Shown: positions 877 to 14,083 of the stretch, one piece after another
Layout: the number at the start of each line of letters is the position of its first letter
How positions within the stretch are numbered: position 1 is the stretch's first letter
Origin: SAR324 cluster bacterium
Lineage (GTDB): Bacteria; SAR324; XYD2-FULL-50-16
DNA length: 64,000 bases
Reading direction: 5' to 3'
NCBI GenBank assembly: GCA_028282885.1
Contig: JANQGX010000059.1
Location: forward strand, 64,906 to 128,905
Position numbers and translations under genes: made by a program
Notes under the pieces: model-generated
What the model saw: only the letters and a program-made list of their open reading frames with translations
Database searches by the model: none
Told to the model about the DNA's origin: nothing

Positions 877-1257
877 TCATCCCAGCACTTTTTTTACAAC
901 ACCGATTAGCTGTTCCGGTTTGAAAGGTTTCACAATCCATCCCGTTGCACCGGCAGCCTTACCTTCCTGCTTCTTGTCTGATTGTGATTCGGTGGTCAGG
1001 AGGATAATCGGTATAAACTTGAAATCCGGATTGGATCGAACCTCCTTTATCAACTCGATTCCATTCATATTGGGCATATGAAGATCGGTCAGGACCATAT
1101 GCGCAGGAGTTTGTTGCAGTTTGGATAGTGCATCAACCCCGTCAACAGCTTCCACAACCTGATATCCTTCATTTTTAAGTGTAAAGGTGACCATCTGCCT
1201 GATACTGGCGGAGTCATCTACAGTTAAAATGATCTTTTCCATATCGACCGTAAGCAT
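877..1257 (-). CDS. cheY: Single-domain CheY-like response regulator
   Basis: 126 aa containing only a receiver domain (ILTVDDSASIRQMV...LTDLHMPNMNGIEL...KP). Located between cheB and cheA. The likely true start is the internal Met of MEKIILTVDD. Confidence 0.85.
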   Translation of the reverse strand: MLTVDMEKIILTVDDSASIRQMVTFTLKNEGYQVVEAVDGVDALSKLQQTPAHMVLTDLHMPNMNGIELIKEVRSNPDFKFIPIILLTTESQSDKKQEGKAAGATGWIVKPFKPEQLIGVVKKVLG

Positions 1258-1318: not shown

Positions 1319-2404
1319 TCACTTGCAGATCCTGATCACTTCTCCGGCAATCCTGTTTAAATCCAGAACCTGATCTGCAGCGCCCAGCTTGATGGCTTCA
1401 TTTGGCATCCCAAACACAACACAACTGTTTTCATCCTGGGCAATGGTTACAGCGCCGGATTCCTTCATTTCAAGCAAGCCTTTGGCTCCGTCATCCCCCA
1501 TCCCCGTCATGATTACGCCACAGGCATTTTTGCCCGCATAGCGCGAGGCAGAGCGAAACAACACATCGACAGAGGGACGATGGCGGCTGACGAGCGGACC
1601 ATTTTTTACTTCCACGTAATATCGAGCTCCGCTTCGTTTCAGGAGGGTGTGTTTATTGCCGGGAGCAATAAGGACTCTTCCCCTCACAACGGAATCGTTG
1701 TCGCGGGCTTCCATCACTGTTACCCTGCACATCCCGTTCAGCCGGTTGGCAAAGGCAGTTGTAAAGTTTTCAGGCATATGTTGGACAATGACAGTTCCCG
1801 GGGCATCCGAGGGAAGAGCTTCCAGAAAAACTCTCAGGGCCTCCGTGCCTCCTGTGGAAGCTCCGACAACAACGATCTTTTCGGTAGTCTGAACCATGGC
1901 CTTTGACGTTGATTTCGGTAAAACCGCATCGGCTGTCAGTTTTTTGGTTGGCCGTATTCCCTTTTCGGGCGTATTTCGTTTCTTCGGTTTTGTTTGGGCA
2001 GCAGCTTTGACAACATCACAGATAAGGATTTTCGATTCCTCAAGAAACTGTTTGGTACCCAGTTGTGGCTTATGAATGATATCGACTGCCCCTAATTGCA
2101 GGGCTTTTATGGCCGTTTCCGAACCTTTGTCCGCAAGACTTGAACAGATGACGACAGGAATCGGGTGTTGTGACATCAGTTTCTGCAAAAAGGTAATGCC
2201 GTCCATTCTGGGCATTTCCACATCAAGTGTTATGACATCCGGTTCCACGGAGTGCATTTTTTTTGCCGCAATATAGGGATCCGAAGCCGTACCGATAACG
2301 GAGATTTCCTGATCCGATGACAGGGTGCGTTCCAGGGCCTGCCTGACCACAGCCGAATCATCAACGATAAGCACCTTTATAGGATTCATTGGTTTGCTCT
2401 TCAA
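1319..2404 (-). CDS. cheB: Chemotaxis protein-glutamate methylesterase CheB (REC domain plus CheB methylesterase domain)
   Basis: An N-terminal receiver domain ([13 protein letters not shown]...[12 protein letters not shown]) is followed by the methylesterase domain ([13 protein letters not shown]...[10 protein letters not shown]...[10 protein letters not shown]). The annotated start is a TTG; an ATG (MNPIK) lies at 2389. Confidence 0.9.
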
Positions 2405-2418
2405 ACAAAATGTCCTGA

Positions 2419-3267
2419 CTAGACAGATTTTCTAAAAACGGTTGGAAATACCGGCTCTACCGGAAGACGCATTCCCTGGGTAGACTCTGAATGTCCCTGA
2501 AACAGGTATCCGCCCGGAACCAGACGACTGATTATTTTTCCAAGGATAGCTTCCTGGGTTTCCTTATTAAAATAAATAATGACATTTCTACAGAAAGCGA
2601 TATGGATGTTTTGCTCAATCCCAAAGTCCTTGTCCATCAGATTCAGTTTTCGAAAGGTAACCTTATCCCTGATTTCCGGTGCGATTTTAACGATCGGTTT
2701 TTTATAGTCCCTGCTTTTTAGCAGGTACTTCTTCCTTAAAGCCAGCGGGATCGGATCTATTTGGGAAGTGTGATACACAGCATTTTTGCCCATGGACAAG
2801 ACATTGTCCGAAATATCCGTGGCCAGGATAGAAAAGTTAAACCGGATTTTCGGATTCCTGGATGCAAATTCACTAATTACCATCGCCAGGGTGTAGGCCT
2901 CTTCACCTGAAGAGCATCCTGCACTCCATATTCTCAACTGCCTAATATTATTACCGCTCTGGTTCAGTAATGATGGCAGGATATTCTGTGAAAGACGGGA
3001 GAAATGGTCCGGTTCTCTGAAAAAATCGGTTTTGTTGGTTGTAACCTTGTTAATGAAATGAGGGATTTCTTCTTGTCTTCCCTCGGCACTGAAGAGATAG
3101 TCGCAATACTCCTTATAGTCATTGATCTTGAGTTGTCGGAGTCGCTTCATGAGCCGGGATTCAAGCATTGTTTTCTTGACGGCCGGCATCTTGATCCCGA
3201 ATTCAGATTCGATAAAAGAGCTGAGTCGGTTAAAATCCGATTTTTTCAGGGTCTGCAATCCGATCAT
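2419..3267 (-). CDS. cheR: Chemotaxis protein methyltransferase CheR
   Basis: CheR N-terminal helical domain and SAM-dependent methyltransferase core ([18 protein letters not shown]...ILATDIS...NVIIYF). The ORF runs to a GTG at 3294. The in-frame ATG at 3265-3267 overlaps the STAS gene TGA by 1 nt (TGATG), so the ATG was chosen. Confidence 0.88.
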
Positions 3268-3590
3268 CAGTCTGCCCCACCAAAACAGAGCCACTTTGTC
3301 CAGGACAGTCCGGCACTTTCAACTGCTTCTCTGAACAATTGCGGGCAGTCGCCTTTCAGGCTAAGCTGCTTGTCCAGTTTTTTTGCCGTCAGGTGAAGTG
3401 CAAAAAGGAGTTGGATGGAAGAGAGATCAAACAACTGTACTTCATCCAGGTCGAGTATACAGTCGTCTGCGGAACTCAGAAATCCGGACAGCACATCCTT
3501 TAACTTGCTGGCATCCTGAATCATCAGATTGCCACCCAGTTTCAGCTCTGCTCTCTGGTTTGTCTCATCGAACTTAATGTCAGTTTCCAT
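3267..3590 (-). CDS. STAS-domain protein (anti-sigma-factor-antagonist / SpoIIAA-like) embedded in the che operon
   Basis: 107 aa. The predicted fold pattern and the motif ...ILDLDEVQLFDLSSIQLLFALHL... resemble SpoIIAA/STAS proteins. Its stop overlaps the cheR start by 1 nt, indicating translational coupling. Confidence 0.55.
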   Translation of the reverse strand: METDIKFDETNQRAELKLGGNLMIQDASKLKDVLSGFLSSADDCILDLDEVQLFDLSSIQLLFALHLTAKKLDKQLSLKGDCPQLFREAVESAGLSWTKWLCFGGAD

Positions 3591-3660: not shown

Positions 3661-4152
3661 TCAACTGATTTCGGCGGCGTTCTGCAGTATTTCAAGCTCG
3701 TCTAATGTGAAGACTTTTTCGATCTCCAGAATGATAATGAACTCTTCATCGCGTTTGCCCATACCCCGGATCAGTTCGGTATTGAGTCGGGTTCCAATCT
3801 TAGGCGGAGGTTCAACATGCTCATCTTCGAGATCAATAACTTCCTGAACCGAATCTGCCAAAGCCCCAATCAGGGTATTCTCGCCATCCAGCTCCAGTTC
3901 AACGATAACTACACAGGTGTTGACCGTTTTTTGAGTCTCACCCATACCAAACTTCAGTTTCAGGTCAATAACCGGGACCACACTTCCACGGAGATTAATA
4001 ACGCCACGCATCATGTCGGGAGTCTGGGGCACTTTGGTGACCCTGTCAAATTCCAATACCTCCCTGACCTGATCGATGCCCAGGGCAAATACCTCACCTT
4101 CAAGTTTGAAGGTAAGATACTGACCTGCTTGCAGGGTTATAGTTTCATTCAT
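3661..4152 (-). CDS. cheW: Chemotaxis coupling protein CheW
   Basis: CheW-like domain (QYLTFKLEGEVFALGIDQVREVLEF...MRGVINLRGSVVPVIDLKLKFG). The start was chosen at MNETITLQ because a GAGGA Shine-Dalgarno sits 8 nt upstream; the longer ORF to 4185 would overlap the upstream MCP stop. Confidence 0.85.
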   Translation of the reverse strand: MNETITLQAGQYLTFKLEGEVFALGIDQVREVLEFDRVTKVPQTPDMMRGVINLRGSVVPVIDLKLKFGMGETQKTVNTCVVIVELELDGENTLIGALADSVQEVIDLEDEHVEPPPKIGTRLNTELIRGMGKRDEEFIIILEIEKVFTLDELEILQNAAEIS

Positions 4153-4165
4153 GATTATATCCTCA

Positions 4166-6252
4166 TTAATAACGTTCAAACTCACTGTCAGAGAGGTTCA
4201 TGCCGTCATCAAGGTTGATAGCTACCTTGGGATAAGCCTCTTCGGGTTTTTTTCTGCCATTTTCGAGTCGCGGAATATCAGCGACATTCTCTGGCTGTTT
4301 ATGTGAAATCTGACTGAATCCCTGGCGGGAAGAGACAGGCTTTGCTTTACTTACAGGGGGGGCATGTCTGGATGTGCCATTTACTTTGAAATAATCGATT
4401 GAACTCTGAAGTTGTTGAGCCTGGGCGGCCAATTCTTCAGAAGTTGATGCCATCTCTTCGGTAGCACTGGCATTTTGTTGAATCACAGAATCAAGCTGTT
4501 GGATAGCCTTATTGATTTGATCGACGCCGGCATTTTGTTCATTGCTGGCAGCGCTGATCTCCTGGACCAGTTCCGCTGTTTTCTGAATATCGGGTACCAG
4601 TTTCTCCAGCATCTGGCCTGCTCTTTCAGCAACTTCAACACTGTTGGATGATATCTGCGAGATTTCACCGGCTGCAGTTTGACTGCGTTCTGCCAGCTTA
4701 CGAACCTCCGCAGCCACCACTGCGAATCCCTTTCCATGTTCACCGGCCCGTGCTGCTTCAATTGCCGCATTCAGGGCCAGGAGATTGGTATTTCGTGCAA
4801 TTTCCTCAATGATGGATATCTTGGAAGCGATTTCGTTCATGGCACCTACAGCCCTATTAACGGCGGAACCGCTCTCCTTGGCATCCCTGGATGCCTGGAT
4901 GGCGATTTGCTCGGTCTGGCTTGCGTTATCCGCGTTCTGCTGAATGTTGGCGCTCATCTGCTCCATGGAGGAGGTGGTCTCTTCCACCGAAGCCGCCTGT
5001 TCGGTAGCTCCCTGGGACAACTGCTGGGCAGTCGAACTCAGTTGTTCGCTGCCAGCAGTGACATTATCCACTGCCAGCCTGATTTCCCCAACAATAGAGC
5101 TGAGCTTGGACACCATCTGGTTAAGTGCGTGTGCCAGTTCTCCCACCTCATCCTTCTGATCCAGATCCAGTTGATCGGTCAGATCCCCTTCGGACACCAC
5201 CTTTGCAAAACCAACGCCTTTGCCGATGGGACCGGTTATTGCCTTGGCAATAACGATAGCGATAATGATACCGATGACCAGTGCGACAACACAGATAATA
5301 ACAACAACCAGGCGGGTGTTGATTGCTTTGTCCAACATGAGGTCTTCTGAAATGACATTTTGACGGGTTGTATCAATCAGTCCGTCGAGCAGGTTTGCCA
5401 CTTTATCCAGGTTGGGCTGGGTTTCATTGGCAAAAACAGCCCTGGCCTTTTTAGCTCCCTCGAGATCGGATTGGGCTTTTGCCTGAAGCTGCTTGAGATA
5501 ACTTCTGGTCTCTATGAGTGTCTGTGTGGTCTCATTCCGATAGATTACAAAAGCTTCCTCGGTTTTTCCTGCTTTCAAGGCTTCGTCTATCCTGATGGCC
5601 GAATCATGGAGACGTTTGTGAGGCACTTTAATCTCCTCCAGGAGTCTGGCATACTCAGAATCCGAACTGGCCATTTGCCGTCCAACCTCTCCGAAAAGCA
5701 GTTTACCAAAAGCACATTGGGTATGATCCAGTTGAACACCGGTTTTTTCACTCTTACTCAAAATGGCATTCTGGATCTGCTCGGCCCAAGCCAGATGATC
5801 AGTTTCCCTGTTCGCCAGAATAGCGGGAAGCTGTTCGTTTGCCTGGCTAAACACTTCTTTGATTTCAATAGCAGATTCATGGAGTAGGCGATGGGGTTCT
5901 TCTATTGCTGTAAAAAGAGGTTTCAAGGCGGGTATCAGCGCCTCTGCCTTTTTTCTTCCCTCTCCGTAATACCATTTGCCGAATCCGCATTTGCGATAAT
6001 CGGTTTCAACGGTCAATTCAGTGTGTTGATCATCTGTCAGGAGTTTGTTCACTTCACCAGCCCATTTGAGGTGATCCACTTCTCTTTGCAGGAGGATACC
6101 AACCAGCTTGTTTCCTTCTGCGAGTTCCTGGGCATCTGAAACGATACCGTCAATCCCGTTCCAGGCCCAGCCCCCGACGAAAATCATTAAGACAAGAACA
6201 ATTCCGACACCGAGTAGTATCTTTCTTCCAAGTTTCAGGTTTTTCCAGCTCA
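4166..6252 (-). CDS. Methyl-accepting chemotaxis protein with two TM helices, a periplasmic sensor built from two tandem CZB-like (chemoreceptor zinc-binding) modules, HAMP and an MCP signalling domain
   Basis: TM1 is [19 protein letters not shown]; TM2 is [22 protein letters not shown]. Between them are two copies of the HxxW..(~26 aa)..CxFGxW/L..(~27 aa)..HxxxH motif: DHLKWA...CGFGKW...HRLLH and DHLAWA...CAFGKL...HKRLH. They are followed by HAMP and the MCP signalling domain ([37 protein letters not shown]). The start was set at MSWKNL, where an AGGAGA RBS is present; the ORF extends to 6340. Confidence 0.85.
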
Positions 6253-6764
6253 TTGTATCTCCTAATTGTTCTATTGATAGTATTGATTCTCCCCAAACCT
6301 GGATTTCCGGATTTGGGTTTGTGCATAGCTCAGGGGACAAACTACAACAAACGTGCCAGTGTAGTAATGAGTATGAAAAGCTATTAATAACAAAGTATTT
6401 GGAGATGATCCGATATCAAAGATGATAAATTTGGGTATTCATATCCTCGTTTACTTGATTGTTGTCTGAAAAAACTAGACAGCTTCTACTATAACCTCCG
6501 GCATCATATCAAACGTCCGGGGAACTTGAGCAATGCTGTAGAACTCCGGAATCTTTCTTATCCGGCCAACTCCCGGAGTGAAAACTGCCTTTTCCGGTAT
6601 TGAGTCCAGCTATTGATCTCATTGTTGAGATTCCGGGTTAATCGGAGCCGTTTCCATGAAATTATCAGACAGTTTTTTCAAAAGTCTGTCAGAAACAGAA
6701 TCCTTTAAAACAAATATCGGCGGAATCCTGTTTCTGTATTTTAGATTGTGGTTTATAGACCAAA

Positions 6765-9647
6765 CTAATAACGCTCAAATTCGGAATCTGAGAGATCAAC
6801 ATTATCGTCCAGGTTTACAGCAACCTTTGGGATGGATTCCATCTTCTTGTTGTGGCTGCTTTCCAGTTGCGGGATTTTTTCTGCGATCGAGGATTTGCCA
6901 TTGGCGGGGTGATTAAAACCTCCTCTAAGCAGTCCTGCATCGGTCCCTTTCAGATGAATTGCTTTATGTTGCTGATTCCCGTTAATCTTGAAAAAATCAA
7001 TAGTACTCTGAAGCTGTTGGGCCTGGGCTGCCAGTTCTTCAGCAGTTGATGCCATCTCCTCGGTAGCACTGGCATTTTGCTGAATAACGGAATCAAGCTG
7101 TTGGATAGCTTTGTTAATCTGGTCCACACCTGAATTCTGTTCATTGCTGGAAGCACTGATTTCCTGGACCAGTTCTGCAGTTTTCTGGATATCCGGAACC
7201 AATTTTTCCAGCATCTTTCCTGCTTTTTCTGCAACATCAACGCTATTGGCAGAAATATTGGAAATCTCTCCTGCCGCATTTTGGCTGCGTTCAGCCAGCC
7301 TTCTGACCTCCGCTGCAACAACCGCAAATCCTTTGCCGTGCTCGCCAGCCCGAGCCGCTTCAATTGCTGCGTTAAGAGCCAGAAGGTTGGTGTTCCGTGC
7401 AATTTCCTCAATAATTGAGATTTTTGTTGCAATTTCATTCATGGCTGAAACTGTCTTATTCACTGCATCACCACTTTCTTTTGCATCTTTTGCGGCCTGA
7501 ATGGCGATTTTTTCTGTTTGATTTGCGTTGTCGGCATTCTGCTGAATATTTGCGCTCATCTCTTCCATTGAAGAGGTAGTCTCTTCCACCGATGCCGCCT
7601 GTTCAGTAGCGCCTTGCGAGAGTTCTTCCGCTGTTGAGCTTAACTGCTGACTGCCCGAAGTGACATTATCTGCGGAGCTTCTGATAGTGCCGACAATATC
7701 CCCTAGTCGATGCATCATCTCTTTCAAAGCTGTCGAAAGCAAACCGATTTCGTCTTTCTGCCGAACATCGATATCTGCTGTGAGATCTCCATCGGAAACC
7801 AGTTGGGCGAGCCGAGTTCCTTTGCCCAGGGGTTTTGAAATGCTCAGGGCAATAAACATGGCAATGCCTCCCACAAGAATCGCAATGATCAGTCCCATCA
7901 CTAAAATGGATATCAGGAGAGCGTTAACAGGTTCCATGATTTCGGCTTCATCAATTTCTGCAAGAAGAGCCCAGGTTTGATCCCAAAGCTTTATTGGTGT
8001 ATAGGCCGATAAAACCGGATTCCCGTTGTAATCAGTTATGATCTCGGAAGAAGTCTCCCCCGACAATGCATTTATGGCGGCTTTTGTATCCACTCCATTG
8101 GCTTTGACTGTGCCCGCGAATGATGCTTTTACAGAGTGACCTGCGGGATCTAGAAAGGAGTCGGAACGCATCAGTTTGTCAGGACCCACAAGATAGGTTT
8201 CTCCTGTTCTGCCCATTCCTTCACGTTCCTGCATGATACTGTTTATGGCATCCAGGGGAAGTTGCAGTGCAATAATCAGCTCAACCCGGTTTTCAGAAAC
8301 AATCGGTTGAGCGATAAAAGCGCACGGTTCATTGTTGCTGGGTGCGTAGGGATGGAAATCAGCAAATCCAAATTTTCGTGTATTCAAGACCTGTTTGACC
8401 AGTTTGCCCAGGTTGGAGGAGGAATACCTTCCGTTCAGCATATTGGTTTGATAGTCCGACTCACGGGTCACCGTGTAAAACACAAATCCATCCGGGTTAA
8501 TCAGAAACAGATCGTAATAACCATACATCTCCTTGTATTTTGCATAAAATTCATTGCCATCGCTGTCAACCGGGCTAAAGGCTTCTGCAACATCAATTTC
8601 TGAAATCATGGCCCAACGAATGCCATCGCCGATTTCAACCGGGGCCCAGGCGGAGAGGACAGGGTTTCCGTTATAATCGATTATCACTTTCTGATCCTCA
8701 TTTCCGGCCAGAGCCGATCGTACCGCTTCGGTGTTAACAGCAGTGTTGTTCTTAAAAGAGGCAACAACGGAGTGACCTTCAGGATCCAGGTAGGAATCGG
8801 AACGCATCAGGCCGTCCTGTCCGACAAGATAGGATTCGCCAGTCTTTCCCATCCCGTGTCGAAGCAGCATGATATCATTGATCTTCTTTAAGGGAATCTG
8901 CAAGGCTGCAAAACCGATCAGCTTGCCTTCATCATCACGCATTTGGGCCATCATAAATGCAGAAGGAATCCCCCCTGATGGTTCATAAGGCATGAAATCA
9001 CCGATGGCAATGTCGTTTGGCCCCATGGACTGCGCTTTTTTAAAGGCAGAACCAAGGCTGCTTCTAACGAGGCTGCTATCAGGAATGGTCACCCCTAGGT
9101 CTGATTCCTTACCCACGGTGTAAACAATATCTCCGTCATGGTGAATCAGGAAAAGATCGTACCAGCCGAACTCTGTCTTTATGTTGTTCAAACGTTGGTC
9201 GTATTTTTTCAGTAACACATTCCAGCGGGAACCCCCGACTCTATCTCCGTCATCTTCAAAAGCTCGGTCGAACTCCACAAGCGCCTGCATGCTATAGGGA
9301 TCATCACGAAAAGACCTTAGTTGAGATTTCAAGGTGGAGATATAATTATTAATATGCGAGTTTTTCAGCTCCTGAATAGCTTCCAGCTTGAGAAATGCCT
9401 CTTTTCTCAGGGTTCCAACCGTTTCAACCAGAACCCCCATGTCTCCTTCCCGTTCAGCAAAGTACTTCTCTACCTGGGCTTTTTTTATCCCCCTCACCGA
9501 CTCCAACTGACCGAAAGACTTATCCAGCAGTGCGTTGCTGGCAAGACGACCACTCCAGAATCCGACGATGATAAGGGGAATAATACCGACCATTAGAAAC
9601 AGGCTGATTAGTTTAGGTTTCATTTTGATATCATTGAGTTTCACCAT
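6765..9647 (-). CDS. Methyl-accepting chemotaxis protein with a large (~530 aa) periplasmic sensor built from duplicated Cache-like modules, HAMP and an MCP signalling domain
   Basis: N-terminal TM ([19 protein letters not shown]). Two internally similar about 260-aa periplasmic modules ([17 protein letters not shown]... and [17 protein letters not shown]...). A second TM ([25 protein letters not shown]), then HAMP, then a signalling domain about 85% nucleotide-identical to that of the neighbouring MCP. A GGGAGG RBS lies 5 nt before the start. Confidence 0.85.
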
Positions 9648-9882: not shown

Positions 9883-11916
9883 TTAGAAAAATTCTATGTT
9901 ATCGCCCAGATCTTCATCGGCAGCTTCGTTGTCCGGCATAGGCTCCGTATCATCGAAGAGCTCGATGGTTCCTGTGTCGTTTTCATCAAGGGATTGGTTC
10001 GTACTGGACGAAGAGGTGTCAAGCGAAGCCCTGTGAATATCACGTTCGGCTTGCATGGTGTACTTGTTTTTTAACTCCTGCAGGGCAGGATCTATCAAAT
10101 CAATTCCCTGTTCTGATTGAGGCAGGTGTTCCTTAAACTGCTGACAGATGTTTTCCAAACCTTTCATGACATGATCCAACCCTTCGTTGATGGCCCTGCT
10201 GAATTGCAGTTTGTCCACCAGGTCTGAGAAGTCCGCCTTCAACCTTCGGGTTGCGGCCGAGCAGTTGGAGGCATTTTCATCTGTTTGCAGAAGCGTGAGG
10301 ATCGAGGTTCCAATCCGGTCAAAGCTTTCATCCACAGTTTGCATGGACTCTCTTAAATTCAACAGTAGATCGCCTGTGATCTTGTTTGAGTCACTGCTTA
10401 TGGAACTTATAATATCCAGCCTGTCCGAGATCTGGTGTTGTACGGATTGAGAAATAGTGTTTATTTCTGTTGACAACACGGCAAGCGGTTTTCCGAGACG
10501 ACCAATCGCTGAGGCTTTTATCATTGAATTGAGAGCCAACAGCCGTAGATTTAATTCATTGGATTCGATTAAGGAGCTGACCCTGGTGATGCCGCTGACA
10601 TGTTTACTGAGAAGGTCCGTCGAGTTCATCAGTTCATAATTGACTTTTTTATAGTCGCCAAGATGGGAATAAAATTCTTTCAGCAGTTCATCGAGTTTGC
10701 CGATATCCTGTTCAAGCGACATCATGGTTGGAATGATTTGGTCGGCTGTGTCCGATTGTTTTTGCATCAGGTTTAGAATCCTGGTAAAGGATTGGGAGAG
10801 ATTACCGGACACTTCTATGTTTTCATTTTTGAGATTCTGCAGTTGGGCCATTTGCAGATTTAAAACTGCTGTTGCCCAGGCTCTCAGTTTTGACAGGTCT
10901 TTTTCAGTTCCGGTTGCAAATCCTGAGAGATCTGATTGGACCTCTGAAAGATTGTGGCTGATGTGTTCCAGTCTCTGTCGGTAATTGTCATGAAACTGGA
11001 GATAGGTTACAATCTCACCGATCGCCGAGGAGATGGAATTGATAAATCCGCCCATCTGCTGACAGGTGTTAATACTACGCTCTACCTTGCCCGAAATTAC
11101 AGACATCTGTTCCTGGATTTTTCCTTGTTCCTGAACAAGCGAAAGCTGGTTACTTCTGTTTTTGTTTTCAATGCGTGAGAGAATTTTTTGAATCAAATCA
11201 ACGGTTTCTGTCGATGCATTTTTGATCTCCCCGGCATTCCCGGTAATCAGTTCCTCCAGTGTTGTCAAATCGTCCGCAACCGTGTTGAATTCCAGACAAC
11301 CAGCGTTCTCGGTTTCAATCCGGATCATTACCCGCACCATACGCAAGGCTCTGTAAGTTCTGTCCAGAGACTCATTTAGCTCTGTGATTGCTCCAATATT
11401 AGCCTCCATTTTACCTAAAGCGACGGACAGATCGGAGAGAGCGTTTTCAGCCTGATCCGCCTTGGAGAATCCGTCATTCAACGCCTTCCGGATTGATTTT
11501 AGATCAGCTGCTTTGCCGGTGTTCAGAGTGGTGATAACTTTATCAGCCAGGGCTGCATTCTGGTTGTTTATAGTGTTGATATGATTTAACCGTTCTCCCA
11601 GGTAAAGAAACTCCTTTTCAGTTGATTTTGACAGATTATCCAGCTTTGATGCCATATCGGCCAACCCGGAGTTCCAGCTATTAATCGGCAACATGGCAGG
11701 CAAAGACCGCTGTGGATCTGATTTCGGAGGAAGTGATTCGAGTTCCGGAAGTTCAGATTTCTGCAGAATGGAGTTTCGCGTGAAAACCTGATTGTTCTTT
11801 TCCGTGAGCCTGTTTCCCAACCGTGATCTTAAGAATCCGAAAAGCTTTGCAAACCAACCGGGATAAGCGGTAGTTATGATGGTTTTATCTTTCAGTACCA
11901 TATTTGTAGTCTGCAT
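9883..11916 (-). CDS. Soluble, highly divergent MCP-like coiled-coil protein with two hairpin-tip-like segments
   Basis: 677 aa with no TM helix and mostly predicted coiled coil. Residues around 190-230 (ALRMVRVMIRIETENAGCLEFNTVADDLTTLEELITGNAGEIK) and around 455-490 (LRLLALNSMIKASAIGRLGKPLAVLSTEINTISQS) both align to the MCP tip consensus [34 protein letters not shown]. It is the first gene of the che operon and has an acidic C-terminal tail ending ...DNIEFF. Confidence 0.5.
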   Translation of the reverse strand: MQTTNMVLKDKTIITTAYPGWFAKLFGFLRSRLGNRLTEKNNQVFTRNSILQKSELPELESLPPKSDPQRSLPAMLPINSWNSGLADMASKLDNLSKSTEKEFLYLGERLNHINTINNQNAALADKVITTLNTGKAADLKSIRKALNDGFSKADQAENALSDLSVALGKMEANIGAITELNESLDRTYRALRMVRVMIRIETENAGCLEFNTVADDLTTLEELITGNAGEIKNASTETVDLIQKILSRIENKNRSNQLSLVQEQGKIQEQMSVISGKVERSINTCQQMGGFINSISSAIGEIVTYLQFHDNYRQRLEHISHNLSEVQSDLSGFATGTEKDLSKLRAWATAVLNLQMAQLQNLKNENIEVSGNLSQSFTRILNLMQKQSDTADQIIPTMMSLEQDIGKLDELLKEFYSHLGDYKKVNYELMNSTDLLSKHVSGITRVSSLIESNELNLRLLALNSMIKASAIGRLGKPLAVLSTEINTISQSVQHQISDRLDIISSISSDSNKITGDLLLNLRESMQTVDESFDRIGTSILTLLQTDENASNCSAATRRLKADFSDLVDKLQFSRAINEGLDHVMKGLENICQQFKEHLPQSEQGIDLIDPALQELKNKYTMQAERDIHRASLDTSSSSTNQSLDENDTGTIELFDDTEPMPDNEAADEDLGDNIEFF

Positions 11917-11963: not shown

Positions 11964-12356
11964 CTACCTCAGAGCTTGGCAATCGATGGTTTGAAAATTG
12001 ATCATCTTGAACAAAACAGCCCTTAGATTGGTGTAGTCACTTTCAATTGAATCCAAGTATCTCGGGTATAAGAGATGAGCAACTTCAAGAGTCTCCTCTG
12101 AATCATCCGGAAGCAATAAAACCAGCTTTGAGTTTTTCAAGAGATCCTGAATGGACAGCAGATCGAAAAGATCTTTCTTCTTGGCGGCAGCAATAACGCA
12201 AATGGAACGTCCGGCCATAGCGCGTCTCAGCGTAACAGATAGTTCTTTTAATGAGTTACACAATTTACTGCGCTCTGCAGGGATCGATGAAATCACGGTT
12301 TCTTTAAATCGAGGAAGCTTTTCCCGGATTCCGGACAGGTAGAAAATGACATCCAT
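11964..12356 (-). CDS. Hypothetical protein (130 aa), no recognisable domain
   Basis: ORF sitting between the sigma-54 regulator and the che operon on the same strand. No motif recognised. Confidence 0.35.
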   Translation of the reverse strand: MDVIFYLSGIREKLPRFKETVISSIPAERSKLCNSLKELSVTLRRAMAGRSICVIAAAKKKDLFDLLSIQDLLKNSKLVLLLPDDSEETLEVAHLLYPRYLDSIESDYTNLRAVLFKMINFQTIDCQALR

Positions 12357-12643
12357 TTTTATTTGTGTTTAATCTGCTGACAGCTAATGAATGCTGTCCC
12401 GGCATTGGTTTCTACTTGCATATCCCTATTCTGTGGTAGACATTGACGGAAATGTTCATTCTTCAACTTATATGCCAGCCCCGAGAAGTGACGAAAAAAC
12501 CAATAATAACAATTTAAAACGAAACTTTTCGGATCAGACACAAAAACAAAAGGGGTGGTATATGGAGGAAGTGTCTAAAAAAAGGAGACACAGTCCAATA
12601 AAAATAGACAATCGGAAGTTGTCTGCCAGGAGGTTTTTAAACG

Positions 12644-14083
12644 CTATCTGATTGCGATGCTTAAGTGGTGCTTCTTCAGGAGCTGATAAAGTCGGGCCCT
12701 TGAGATCCCGGAAATTCGGCAGGCTTCCCGAACGTTATTCCCGGATAAGGTTATCAGCTCTTTCAGATAGTTTATCTCGGCATTGTCAATGACTTTGGTT
12801 TTAAACTCTTTCAGGTTGGGAAAGGGCTGCTGTCGGTCGATTCTTGCAGGATGAGATATCGTTGAATCAGCCGCTTTCTTGCGCGAGATTTCGGTGCTTT
12901 GCAGTCGGATATGAAGTGGCAGATGTTTCACAAACAGTGTTTTTTCACCCTGAATCTGTCCGAGGGTTGTTTCAAGGGTGTTGATCAGCTCCCGTACGTT
13001 ACCTGGCCAGTGATAGCTTTTCAGGGCTTCCAGAAACTCCGGGGTTATCCTTTTGGGTTCGGTTTGCAATCGTTCACAGATTTTTGAGATATAGTAGGTT
13101 GTCAGCTCATTAATATCTTCCAAACGTTTTCTGAGAGGGGGGAGATGAATTTGGTGAGTTTGCAGTCGAAAGAGCAGATCTTCTCTGAATGCCCCGTTTT
13201 TGACCTCTTCAGCAAGGTTGCGGTTAGTGGCGGAAATCAACCGGAAGTCGCTGCTCACTTCCCGACTTCCCCCGACAGGACGGAATTTTCTCTCCTGCAG
13301 AGCCCTCAGAAAAGTCTTTTGAATATTCAATGGCAGCTCTCCAATCTCATCCAGAAAGAGCGTACCGCCATCAGCCTGTTTCATCAGACCGGTATGATTT
13401 TCGGTGGCACCTGTGAAAGCTCCTTTGATATGACCGAACAGGACGCTCCCCACCAGGTTTTCCGGTAGCGAGGCACAGTCAACCACTACCATGTTTTTAT
13501 CCGATCGCTCGCTGTTCTTGTGTATCGCCAGGGCGAAAACTTCCTTGCCTGTACCGGTTTCACCGGAGATTAGAACATTGGTATTGCTGTTGGCTGCTTT
13601 GGCGACCTGCTTCAGCGCCTGTCTTATCTCGCGTCCCTCCCCTATTACACCTTCCCTGTCCAGAATCAGCAGGGGATTAAGTTCTTTCTTTTCCTTTTGA
13701 TATTGCAGAACTCTTGTCAGGGTAAGAGACAGTTTTGATATGGCGGGGGGTTTTTCAATATAGTCCCAAGCCCCGTTTTTCAGGGCAAGTTCTGCACCTG
13801 TTTCATCCCCATCGCCTGTTACGATGATAACCTCAGGCTGGTAGGACAGTTTACATATTTCCGGAAGAGCGGACAAACCGTCTCCGTCGGGAAGCATTAC
13901 ATCCAGCAAAACAATGTCATAGACATTTTCCTGCAGGTTTTTCATTCCGGCACCAAGGGACAGCTCAAATCTGGCATAATAGCCCATTTTCAGGAGATGT
14001 CTGAGCATGACATCGCAAAACATTTCGTCGTCATCGACAACCAGTATTCTGGATTGTGGTGTTGATTTAGCCTTCATATGCAA
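12644..14083 (-). CDS. Sigma-54-dependent response regulator (NtrC family: REC, AAA+ sigma-54 activator and Fis-type HTH domains)
   Basis: Receiver domain (ILVVDDDEMF...LLDVMLPDGDG). Walker A (ISGETGTGKEVFALAIH). GAFTGA sigma-54 contact motif (FGHIKGAFTGA). C-terminal HTH (NNVREACRISGISRARLYQLLKK). Confidence 0.9.
   Translation of the reverse strand: MHMKAKSTPQSRILVVDDDEMFCDVMLRHLLKMGYYARFELSLGAGMKNLQENVYDIVLLDVMLPDGDGLSALPEICKLSYQPEVIIVTGDGDETGAELALKNGAWDYIEKPPAISKLSLTLTRVLQYQKEKKELNPLLILDREGVIGEGREIRQALKQVAKAANSNTNVLISGETGTGKEVFALAIHKNSERSDKNMVVVDCASLPENLVGSVLFGHIKGAFTGATENHTGLMKQADGGTLFLDEIGELPLNIQKTFLRALQERKFRPVGGSREVSSDFRLISATNRNLAEEVKNGAFREDLLFRLQTHQIHLPPLRKRLEDINELTTYYISKICERLQTEPKRITPEFLEALKSYHWPGNVRELINTLETTLGQIQGEKTLFVKHLPLHIRLQSTEISRKKAADSTISHPARIDRQQPFPNLKEFKTKVIDNAEINYLKELITLSGNNVREACRISGISRARLYQLLKKHHLSIAIR

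Follow-up and report, generated by a model that had tools for sequence, protein, structure and literature searches.

The gene at the head of a chemotaxis (che) operon in a SAR324 cluster bacterium raises the question of whether its product, which resembles a chemoreceptor, is a receptor at all. The gene lies in a 64,000-nucleotide stretch of contig JANQGX010000059.1 (positions 64,906 to 128,905 of the forward strand), which we refer to as the window, and it occupies an open reading frame (ORF) of 677 codons plus a stop on the minus strand, at exactly the positions (9883..11916) given in a first-pass annotation made from the DNA letters alone. In public gene calls the same protein begins five codons later, at Met6, and has 672 residues. 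The annotation described a soluble, almost entirely coiled-coil protein containing two segments that resemble the signalling tip of methyl-accepting chemotaxis proteins (MCPs), and it proposed a duplicated or double-hairpin cytoplasmic receptor or an array scaffold. On the basis of the comparisons described below, descent of the protein from a tandem duplication of the MCP signalling domain is supported, and we consider it moderately probable that the product is a soluble, non-adapting, chemoreceptor-derived scaffold or adaptor that resides in the array and recruits a soluble partner to it.

The MCP ancestry is clearest in the second tip segment, LRLLALNSMIKASAIGRLGKPLAVLS (residues 457-482), which falls within a single-stretch match of the window protein to Pfam MCPsignal (PF00015) spanning residues 428-551 (E 1e-7, 32.4 bits versus a cut-off of 34.6). 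A profile built from the protein and its ten nearest relatives matched the Thermotoga MCP 2CH7/3JA6 with an E-value of 1.5e-15 through the tip and both arms, and MCPsignal was matched by all 22 family members scanned (best E 6.4e-19). The first tip segment, RMVRVMIRIETENAGCLEFNTVADD (residues 192-216), gave no MCPsignal match in the window protein itself. It aligns with RIESARLG..GRGF.TLADDV..LA of more distant family members, relatives match MCPsignal in two separate stretches (the better of which, in P0010, is the first, residues 93-236), and a helix break at residues 206-207 of the AlphaFold 2 (AF2) model falls midway in the segment. Given this alignment to relatives with two MCPsignal stretches and the position of the break, we conclude that the likeness of the first segment reflects homology and not chance. 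Both tip-like segments named by the annotation are thus retained, the second by a direct match and the first by way of aligned relatives; the MCPsignal alignment that it had recommended as a check gives tip 2 a match just below the cut-off and leaves tip 1 of the window protein unmatched. Its suggestion of a duplicated protein is supported by the family profile match to MCP structures and by the two MCPsignal stretches of relatives. The principal structural elements are as follows.

10921..11685, minus strand: hairpin 1, residues 78-332 (helix A 78-205, turn 206-207, helix B 208-332), about 36 heptads, from the AF2 model and coevolution.
11239..11361, minus strand: degenerate signalling tip 1 (RMVRVMIRIETENAG-CLEFNTVADD), residues 186-226.
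10906..10920, minus strand: linker between the hairpins, residues 333-337, short and non-helical, from the alignment and the AF2 model.
10126..10905, minus strand: hairpin 2, residues 338-597 (helix C 338-471, turn about 472-475, helix D 476-597), from homology and coevolution.
10441..10563, minus strand: signalling tip 2 (NLRLLALNSMIKASAIGRLGKPLAVLSTEI), residues 452-492.

When compared with the canonical tip of the MCPs from the same loci, the two family tips retain complementary halves, with LIALNA.I.AA..G..G kept in tip 2 and IE.AR.G..G.GF...A..V..LA in tip 1. Among 149 aligned family sequences N463 and G475 of tip 2 are invariant and G472 is nearly so. In tip 1 of the subfamily to which the window protein belongs (11 sequences with HDNYRQ), two turn residues are deleted and GRGF is lost.

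The fold was modelled with AF2 using the alignment of 149 family sequences, and the secondary structure was read from the DSSP string. The model has a mean predicted local distance difference test (pLDDT) value of 86 and a predicted template-modelling score of 0.72, with low confidence for the first 77 and last 40 residues. Helices span residues 78-205, 208-332, 338-542, 547-569, 572-597, 605-618, and 622-637, in agreement with the earlier description of a protein that is coiled coil nearly throughout, and the absence of a transmembrane helix from the window protein is likewise upheld by its highest 19-residue Kyte-Doolittle mean of 1.05. AlphaFold modelling had also been recommended to decide between one and two antiparallel hairpins, and it gave a divided answer: the helix break at 206-207 was present, and the string ran unbroken through 472-475. 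Because no break appeared at the second tip, mean-field direct-coupling analysis (DCA) was undertaken with 231 family sequences (effective number 208), scoring the top 1% of couplings with z values against shifted controls. Couplings were enriched 3.2-fold (z 5.4) on the hairpin 2 antidiagonal, i+j about 945, with values of 4.4-fold in the tip third, 2.0-fold in the middle third, and 3.5-fold in the distal third, and they were enriched 1.8-fold (z 2.9) on the hairpin 1 antidiagonal, i+j about 413; on both antidiagonals the enrichment also covers the tip-distal thirds. The alternative turn of the AF2 model at 543-546 (i+j about 1089) reached just 1.4-fold (z 2.0) versus the 3.2-fold of the canonical hairpin, and the straight helix 338-542 is taken to be unreliable or a DSSP artefact; helix types may have been lumped in the DSSP summary, or the monomer model may be wrong. 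The enrichment on both antidiagonals, together with a second turn that fits MCP homology, supports two antiparallel hairpins with turns near residues 206 and 472. Both hairpins are about 36 heptads (36H) long; hairpin 2 is a divergent MCPsignal domain whose helix D is irregular at 543-546 and 570-571. A single-chain pseudo-dimer, in which the hairpins would pack side by side over their full length, is not supported and is argued against by the hairpin-to-hairpin couplings, which are 4.5- to 5-fold near the tips and about 1-fold in the middle thirds, being confined to the tip-proximal third. The covariation between tips could equally stem from a common binding partner or from the phylogeny of the subfamilies.

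The term receptor, as used in the first-pass annotation, is doubtful for this protein because it has neither an input domain nor a methylation consensus. No sensor or input domain was detected in Pfam and NCBIfam scans of the window protein or in a scan of family members. With the strict consensus [ASTG][ASTG]xx[EQ][EQ]xx[ASTG][ASTG], the window protein has no methylation site and 205 of 231 family members (89%) have none, as compared with four sites in each of the two neighbouring MCPs and at least one in 65 of the 66 canonical MCPs of related loci.

The strongest conservation in the family lies not in the tips but in a junction module, a feature that the annotation had overlooked. Nine residues are invariant in the 149 aligned sequences (E100, D310, Q314, H318, N463, G475, Y619, T620, and F677), and six of these, none of them in a tip, belong to three motifs: TE.EFL.LG opens helix A, LQFHD..RQ..EH is close to where helix B ends, and YTM..ER..H follows helix D. 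In the window protein they take the following form.

11587..11628, minus strand: N-motif STEKEFLYLGERL, residues 97-110, start of helix A, from conservation and coevolution.
10963..11010, minus strand: central motif VTYLQFHDNYRQRLEH, residues 303-318.
10006..10104, minus strand: two short C-terminal helices, residues 605-637, bearing KYTMQAERDIH.

E100 of the N-motif is invariant, with F103, L104, and G107 nearly so, and within hairpin 1 the motif faces the central one (i+j about 413). In the central motif D310, Q314, and H318 are invariant and Q307, H309, R313, and E317 nearly so; in the C-terminal helices Y619 and T620 are invariant and M621, E624, R625, and H628 nearly so. Couplings between residues 296-337 and 603-640 are enriched 3.3-fold at i+j about 935 (top-3% threshold), as for D310 with R625, in an antiparallel sense. 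On the basis of the hairpin geometry and this second coevolution signal, the three motifs are brought together into one junction module. All that is left at the paralogous position in helix D is I.FH....L, which we read as the sequence trace of the internal duplication.

The central motif shows a specific but weak resemblance to the active-site helix of the CheY-P (phosphorylated CheY) phosphatase CheZ, in which D143 and Q147 are the catalytic residues. The family consensus L-Q-F-H-D-I-T-R-Q is the same as the CheZ sequence Q-D-F-Q-D-L-T-G-Q at F, D, L/I, T, and Q, and D310/Q314, the invariant dyad of Asp-x3-Gln type, are placed on D143/Q147 by hhalign and by CheZ profile hidden Markov model (HMM) coordinates; the E. 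coli CheZ sequence used was 100% identical to the database entry. Central 81-residue segments of 40 family proteins were scanned one by one against Pfam and NCBIfam. Pfam CheZ (PF04344) was matched by 13 of the 40 (best E 3.6e-4) and NCBIfam Phos_CheZ (NF041271) also by 13 (best E 3.6e-5), each being the most frequent family, and PRK11166 was matched by three (best E 0.011). As the control, the paralogous segments from helix D of these 40 proteins were scanned and gave no CheZ match, and no family was matched by more than four of them. The likeness extends to general form in that CheZ too is a long antiparallel helical bundle whose F-x-D-[LI]-T-x-Q helix carries the D-x3-Q dyad, has a short hydrophobic C-terminal peptide that ends in Phe and is attached by a flexible acidic linker, and, as proposed for the family, acts at the receptor array. 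It differs in that the similarity is sub-threshold and covers about 55 residues only, the motif sits within an MCP-derived hairpin, the family adds the invariant or nearly invariant H309, E317, and H318 that are absent from CheZ, and the CheZ tail DDLLDSLGF is distinct from the family DLGDNVELF. The resemblance could be due to a distant common origin with CheZ or to convergence on its active-site helix; by any curated threshold the protein is not a member of the CheZ family, though it may work in a CheZ-like manner.

Beyond the junction module the chain ends in a tethered peptide.

9913..10005, minus strand: acidic low-confidence linker, residues 638-668, with one internal copy of the tail motif (TIELFDD).
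9886..9912, minus strand: C-terminal peptide DLGDNIEFF, residues 669-677, F677 invariant.

The acidic tail ending in IEFF that the annotation reported is therefore present in the window protein, and its family-wide form is DLGDN[VI]ELF, with DN[VI]ELF found in 153 of 156 members. The proposal that it echoes the aromatic tails of MCPs did not hold up. The MCPs of the window end in SEFERY (6765-6800 and 4166-4200, minus strand), a standard aromatic-x-x-aromatic pentapeptide, and the canonical MCPs of the clusters end in D-x-E-F-E-[RK]-[FY], which is conserved across the Desulfobacterota and Nitrospirota loci. The window protein ends in N-I-E-F-F, with Ile at the second position of the pattern x-[FWYH]-x-x-[FWYH], and NFELF occurs in just 6 of the 156 members. 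Because the cluster MCPs carry a different conserved pentapeptide, the family tail is probably not simply the CheR/CheB tether of the cluster. The tails of 36 members have two to six copies of an [ILVF][ED][LFI]F unit. In P0017, P0031, P0038, P0068, P0137, and P0155 the acidic tail contains three to six tandem G/D-x-[IV]-E-L-F-[GD] units (for example, DDGIELFGAGEASEGGDNIELFGSDESSGGGDNIELFG). As sequences, such tandem tails look like a multivalent docking array.

The protein is a member of a large family for which no description was found in the literature and which no curated Pfam or NCBIfam model covers, as judged by scanning the window protein. A word-indexed search had returned only 11 relatives. 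An exhaustive profile search of 1.84 billion representatives (50%-identity clusters) returned at least 150 full-length matches (about 575-740 residues) at E < 1e-79 and 1,461 proteins at E ≤ 1e-30, and when each species was represented by a single genome, a relative was found to be encoded in at least 421 of them. Members occur mostly in Desulfobacterota (Syntrophobacteraceae, Syntrophales, Desulfovibrionales, and Geobacter) and Nitrospirota, and also in Acidobacteriota, Planctomycetota, Armatimonadia, and others. Public labels are inconsistent, including "hypothetical protein", "methyl-accepting chemotaxis protein", and, once, "type VII secretion target". The last label, assigned by PGAP to an alphaproteobacterial member on megaplasmid p2 of Shinella sp. 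H4-D48 (NZ_CP093339.1, L083 8857-10581), is probably a misannotation; that protein carries QIGDITRQRIEH, YTMVSERDVH, and a ...DALF end, and its gene is divergent from an adjoining set of STAS, response regulator, CheA, CheW, and three MCP genes, with a sigma-54 regulator alongside. The '40+24H' MCP class of Geobacter was considered as the same entity and set aside, as the one paper among those searched that uses the term lists it as a Geobacteraceae MCP class and does not mention two tips.

The gene context in the window, with genes in the order of transcription, is as follows.

12644-14083, minus strand: NtrC-type (sigma-54-type) response regulator, upstream.
11964..12356, minus strand: ORF of 130 residues, separated from the family gene by a 47-nucleotide gap upstream of the latter.
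9883..11916, minus strand: the family gene, described above.
6765-9647, minus strand: canonical transmembrane MCP.
4166-6340, minus strand: second canonical transmembrane MCP.
3661-4185, minus strand: CheW, 174 residues, single domain.
3267-3590, minus strand: STAS-domain protein, CheS-like (Pfam STAS_2, E 1e-10).
2419-3294, minus strand: CheR.
1319-2404, minus strand: CheB.
877-1257, minus strand: CheY.
About 783 down to 1, minus strand: start of CheA, cut by the window edge.

The order that the annotation gave on one strand (two MCPs, CheW, CheR, CheB, CheY, and CheA after the family gene) was found on the minus strand; it missed the STAS gene between CheW and CheR, the tight linkage of that gene to the family, and the conserved 130-residue ORF upstream. 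A hybrid histidine kinase gene also lies upstream, on the same strand as the family gene. The genes of 81 related loci were labelled with HMMs derived from the loci. The first labelled gene downstream of the family gene encodes a STAS protein in 52, CheY in 17, CheA in 5, and an MCP in 3; the second is CheY in 51 and the third CheA in 52, and CheA lies within 9 kb of the family gene in 73 of the 81. A second CheW domain was seen in none of 58 CheW genes. The common order is family gene-STAS-CheY-CheA-(MCP)-CheW-CheR-CheD-CheB, of which the window order (MCP-MCP-W-STAS-R-B-Y-A) is a rearrangement; a STAS-CheR-CheB-CheY-CheA block is displaced in much the same way in the related locus L001, whose family protein has 53% identity and where CheW precedes a single MCP.

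The common order resembles that of F7 clusters. The F7 arrangement (STAS)-cheY-cheA-cheW-mcp-cheR-cheD-cheB fits most of the related loci, a likeness by gene order and hairpin length, and a "stage 1" F7 cluster order begins with an anti-sigma-factor antagonist (PMC7184735). Like F7-class MCPs (36H, for example of the Aer2/McpB type), the family has signalling-domain homology and hairpins of about 36 heptads. It differs from them in having two signalling domains per chain, no methylation consensus, no aromatic pentapeptide, and tip residues that are changed at about half of the core positions. The near-constant STAS-only neighbour, which adjoins CheY and CheA, recalls the CheS protein of Sinorhizobium meliloti, which likewise consists of a single STAS domain, binds CheA, and furthers dephosphorylation of CheY1-P (PMC12654446); this likeness is one of domain and concerns the partner gene.

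Taken in sequence, the mechanism that we favour would begin with homodimers forming MCP-like four-helix bundles, the tips of which would insert beside the ordinary MCPs of the operon into the CheA/CheW lattice, certainly by tip 2 and possibly not by the degenerate tip 1. The protein would act there as a structural or adaptor element, as has been proposed for DosM in the F9 arrays of Vibrio cholerae, and not as a ligand sensor. The junction module and tail would bring a soluble component of the pathway, most probably CheY, to the array, and the module could possibly also dephosphorylate CheY-P in the manner of CheZ. Dimerisation, lattice insertion, and a scaffold role are much more likely than recruitment of a soluble partner by the junction and tail.

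For the last step, we regard CheZ-like phosphatase activity of the family as plausible but less likely than not. The same guarded standing applies to its fuller form, an array-resident phosphatase on a chemoreceptor chassis, in which an MCP hairpin would carry the CheZ-type D310/Q314 helix in its distal portion, one or more C-terminal ELF peptides, held by the acidic linker, would capture CheY and hand it to that site, and the tips would park the enzyme in the lattice. Among the clusters examined, none had a recognised phosphatase gene.

Several observations weigh against the mechanism or parts of it. Each tip keeps about 13 to 14 of 31 core positions, with changes at residues that are near-universal in MCPs, and tip 1 of this subfamily has the two-residue deletion in its turn; since tip 1 of the window protein is degenerate, binding of CheW/CheA at both ends is open to doubt. 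Both AF2 runs gave an unbroken helix 338-542 through tip 2 (G472-R-L-G475-K-P477) with a pLDDT of about 94, which conflicts with the U-turn indicated by homology and coevolution. The hairpins may form either a collinear rod (about 38 nm, as in DosM) or a folded-back arrangement, and coevolution favours neither. As to the phosphatase, the window subfamily has D-N-Y-R-Q, so that N311/Y312 replace the [LI]/T of the CheZ signature F-x-D-[LI]-T-x-Q. The hhalign comparison of the family with E. coli CheZ and with an alignment of enteric CheZ gave a single hit in the expected register with E-values of 0.16, 0.10, and 0.055, which are not significant; the CheZ alignment was shallow because the protein search returned only enteric CheZ sequences of at least 78% identity. 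The scores of the segment scans lie far below the cut-offs (best 23.4 bits versus 350 for NF041271; the Pfam value of 30.7 was not reached), the window protein and its own central segment gave no CheZ match in Pfam or NCBIfam, and a segment-profile search of PDB sequences did not retrieve CheZ. Furthermore, the pairing of D310 with R625 suggests a buried structural or ligand site as readily as an exposed catalytic one.

A different use of the same architecture would be a purely structural strut like DosM (VC1403, WP_001185438.1; PMC9321776 Table S6). DosM has two signalling domains and no sensor, is a proposed structural scaffold, and is essential for the double-layered cytoplasmic F9 array; homologues are present in about 2% of complete genomes, and 98% of them are without a sensor domain (PMC7534058, PMC9321776). 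By analogy, the family protein would be a rod of about 38 nm with a tip at each end that bridges two CheA/CheW baseplates of a cytoplasmic sandwich array, and the junction motifs would only keep the halves in register while the tail would be a variant CheR/CheB tether. We judge this to be a credible but distinctly less than even prospect, as it is for the strut itself and for these roles of the junction and tail. Like DosM, the protein is soluble and sensorless, with tandem MCP signalling domains and a gene that heads a che cluster, and the two hairpins are of equal length, derived from MCPsignal, and lack a transmembrane helix. The relatives have the DosM architecture of two MCPsignal stretches with no transmembrane helix, copy 1 of the window protein being recognisable only via the family alignment. 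In the DosM array the baseplates are separated by 35 nm (PMC7184735, PMC7534058). The coupling of the YTM helices to the end of helix B looks as though helix D continued across the junction, and NVELF shares N, E, and F with NWETF, with a few members having NFELF. Against the strut, F9 clusters combine DosM with a triple-domain CheW3, the order DosM-W3-B-R-Y-A, and receptors of 44 heptads (44H) (PMC7534058, PMC9321776), whereas this family is found with single-domain CheW (none of the 58 being multi-domain), the order family gene-STAS-Y-A, and hairpins of about 36H; neither the window nor any of the 81 related loci has CheW3 or the F9 order, and Desulfovibrio, Geobacter, Syntrophus, and Thermodesulfovibrio, all genera of the family, are absent from the 72 F9 species listed in PMC9321776. 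The linker between the hairpins (5 residues in the window protein) is flexible, acidic, and indel-prone, reaching about 50 residues in relatives, which is a poor fit to a rigid strut, and tip 1 is degenerate in this subfamily. A strut would also leave the invariant polar residues D310, Q314, H318, and E100 and the specific CheZ-profile signal unexplained, and the cluster MCPs already bear a canonical-type pentapeptide unlike the family tail. Because CheW3 and the F9 gene order are lacking, the protein is not filed as DosM; it is filed as a further variant of double-signalling-domain protein, in an F7-like, STAS-containing cluster, set apart from DosM by gene context.

It is improbable, in our estimation, that the protein is a genuine cytoplasmic sensor in which the junction (E100, H309, D310, Q314, E317, H318, E624, R625, and H628) binds a metal or small ligand and controls CheA through the bundles. 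Invariant His, Asp, Glu, and Gln residues from three helices do converge at one site, and the junction corresponds to the position at which the input module is attached in ordinary MCPs; other soluble chemoreceptors use C-terminal or N-terminal sensing modules. A sensor is at odds with the lack of a known sensor-domain match and of methylation sites for adaptation, it leaves the conserved tethered tail unexplained, and to our knowledge the residue pattern fits no metal-site motif (hemerythrin, CZB). An unrelated long coiled coil (SMC-, Rad50-, or toxin-like) with a chance resemblance to the tips, which the annotation had named as the case that would overturn its reading, is exceedingly unlikely and effectively refuted by the MCP-structure profile match, by MCPsignal in every member scanned, and by the obligatory che-operon context. 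The Foldseek search of the first AF2 model, which ranked PrgA, Smc5/6, and Rad50 at E-values similar to those of MCPs, was uninformative at template-modelling scores of 0.09-0.13.

With regard to the scaffold or adaptor that we favour, DosM has so far been the only double-signalling-domain chemoreceptor studied, and such receptors have been taken to mark the rare F9 class. The window shows a second, far larger family that shares this basic architecture and is found chiefly in anaerobes (Desulfobacterota, Nitrospirota, and Acidobacteriota), that differs in its type of cluster, occurs without CheW3, and has lost the methylation sites. If the junction module docks or dephosphorylates CheY, this would explain signal termination in these F7-like pathways and would offer a tractable example of an enzyme built into the receptor lattice. 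Phosphatases of CheY-P are otherwise localised by binding of CheZ to CheA-short or by placement of CheC/FliY at the motor. An array-resident phosphatase, if true, would be a third way to place such an enzyme at the kinase, and an evolutionary link between CheZ and receptor hairpins would be suggested.

Some further features of the locus concern the ends of the operon and of the protein. The STAS ORF overlaps the longest CheR ORF (GTG start) by 28 nucleotides (3267-3294), and CheW overlaps the second MCP by 20 nucleotides; either the overlaps reflect tight translational coupling, or the CheR start lies further downstream than that of the longest ORF. The 130-residue ORF has 55% identity to a syntenic ORF in L001. 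Searches of Pfam, NCBIfam, and PDB returned no match for it, profile comparison with CheY, STAS, CheW, CheD, CheB, CheR, and NtrC revealed no relationship, and it may be a dedicated partner of the family. Among the 58 related loci with a labelled upstream gene, the nearest is an NtrC-type regulator in 19 (18 on the same strand) and the 130-residue ORF in 13. A near-consensus sigma-54 -24/-12 element, TGGCAT-ATAAG-TTGAA, with GA for GC at -12, is located at 12462-12477 of the minus strand, about 105 nucleotides upstream of the 130-residue ORF; the gene of the NtrC-type regulator ends just upstream of it, and inverted TGTCT/AGACA repeats are present nearby, at about 12570-12600. L001 has a matching element, TGGCATGCAAGTTGAA, at -116. 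A sigma-54 promoter was rejected as a family-wide trait, being seen in just three independent related loci plus three copies of L001 among the 75 scanned.

Lastly, the protein begins with a region set apart from the hairpins.

11686..11916, minus strand: variable N-terminal region, residues 1-77, with AF2 pLDDT below 50 and poorly conserved alignment columns.
11818-11859, minus strand: short predicted amphipathic helix GWFAKLFGFLRSRL, residues 20-33, within the otherwise disordered N-terminus.

The predicted helix could be a membrane- or partner-docking element, and basic-hydrophobic stretches like it are also present in the nearest relatives of the window protein.

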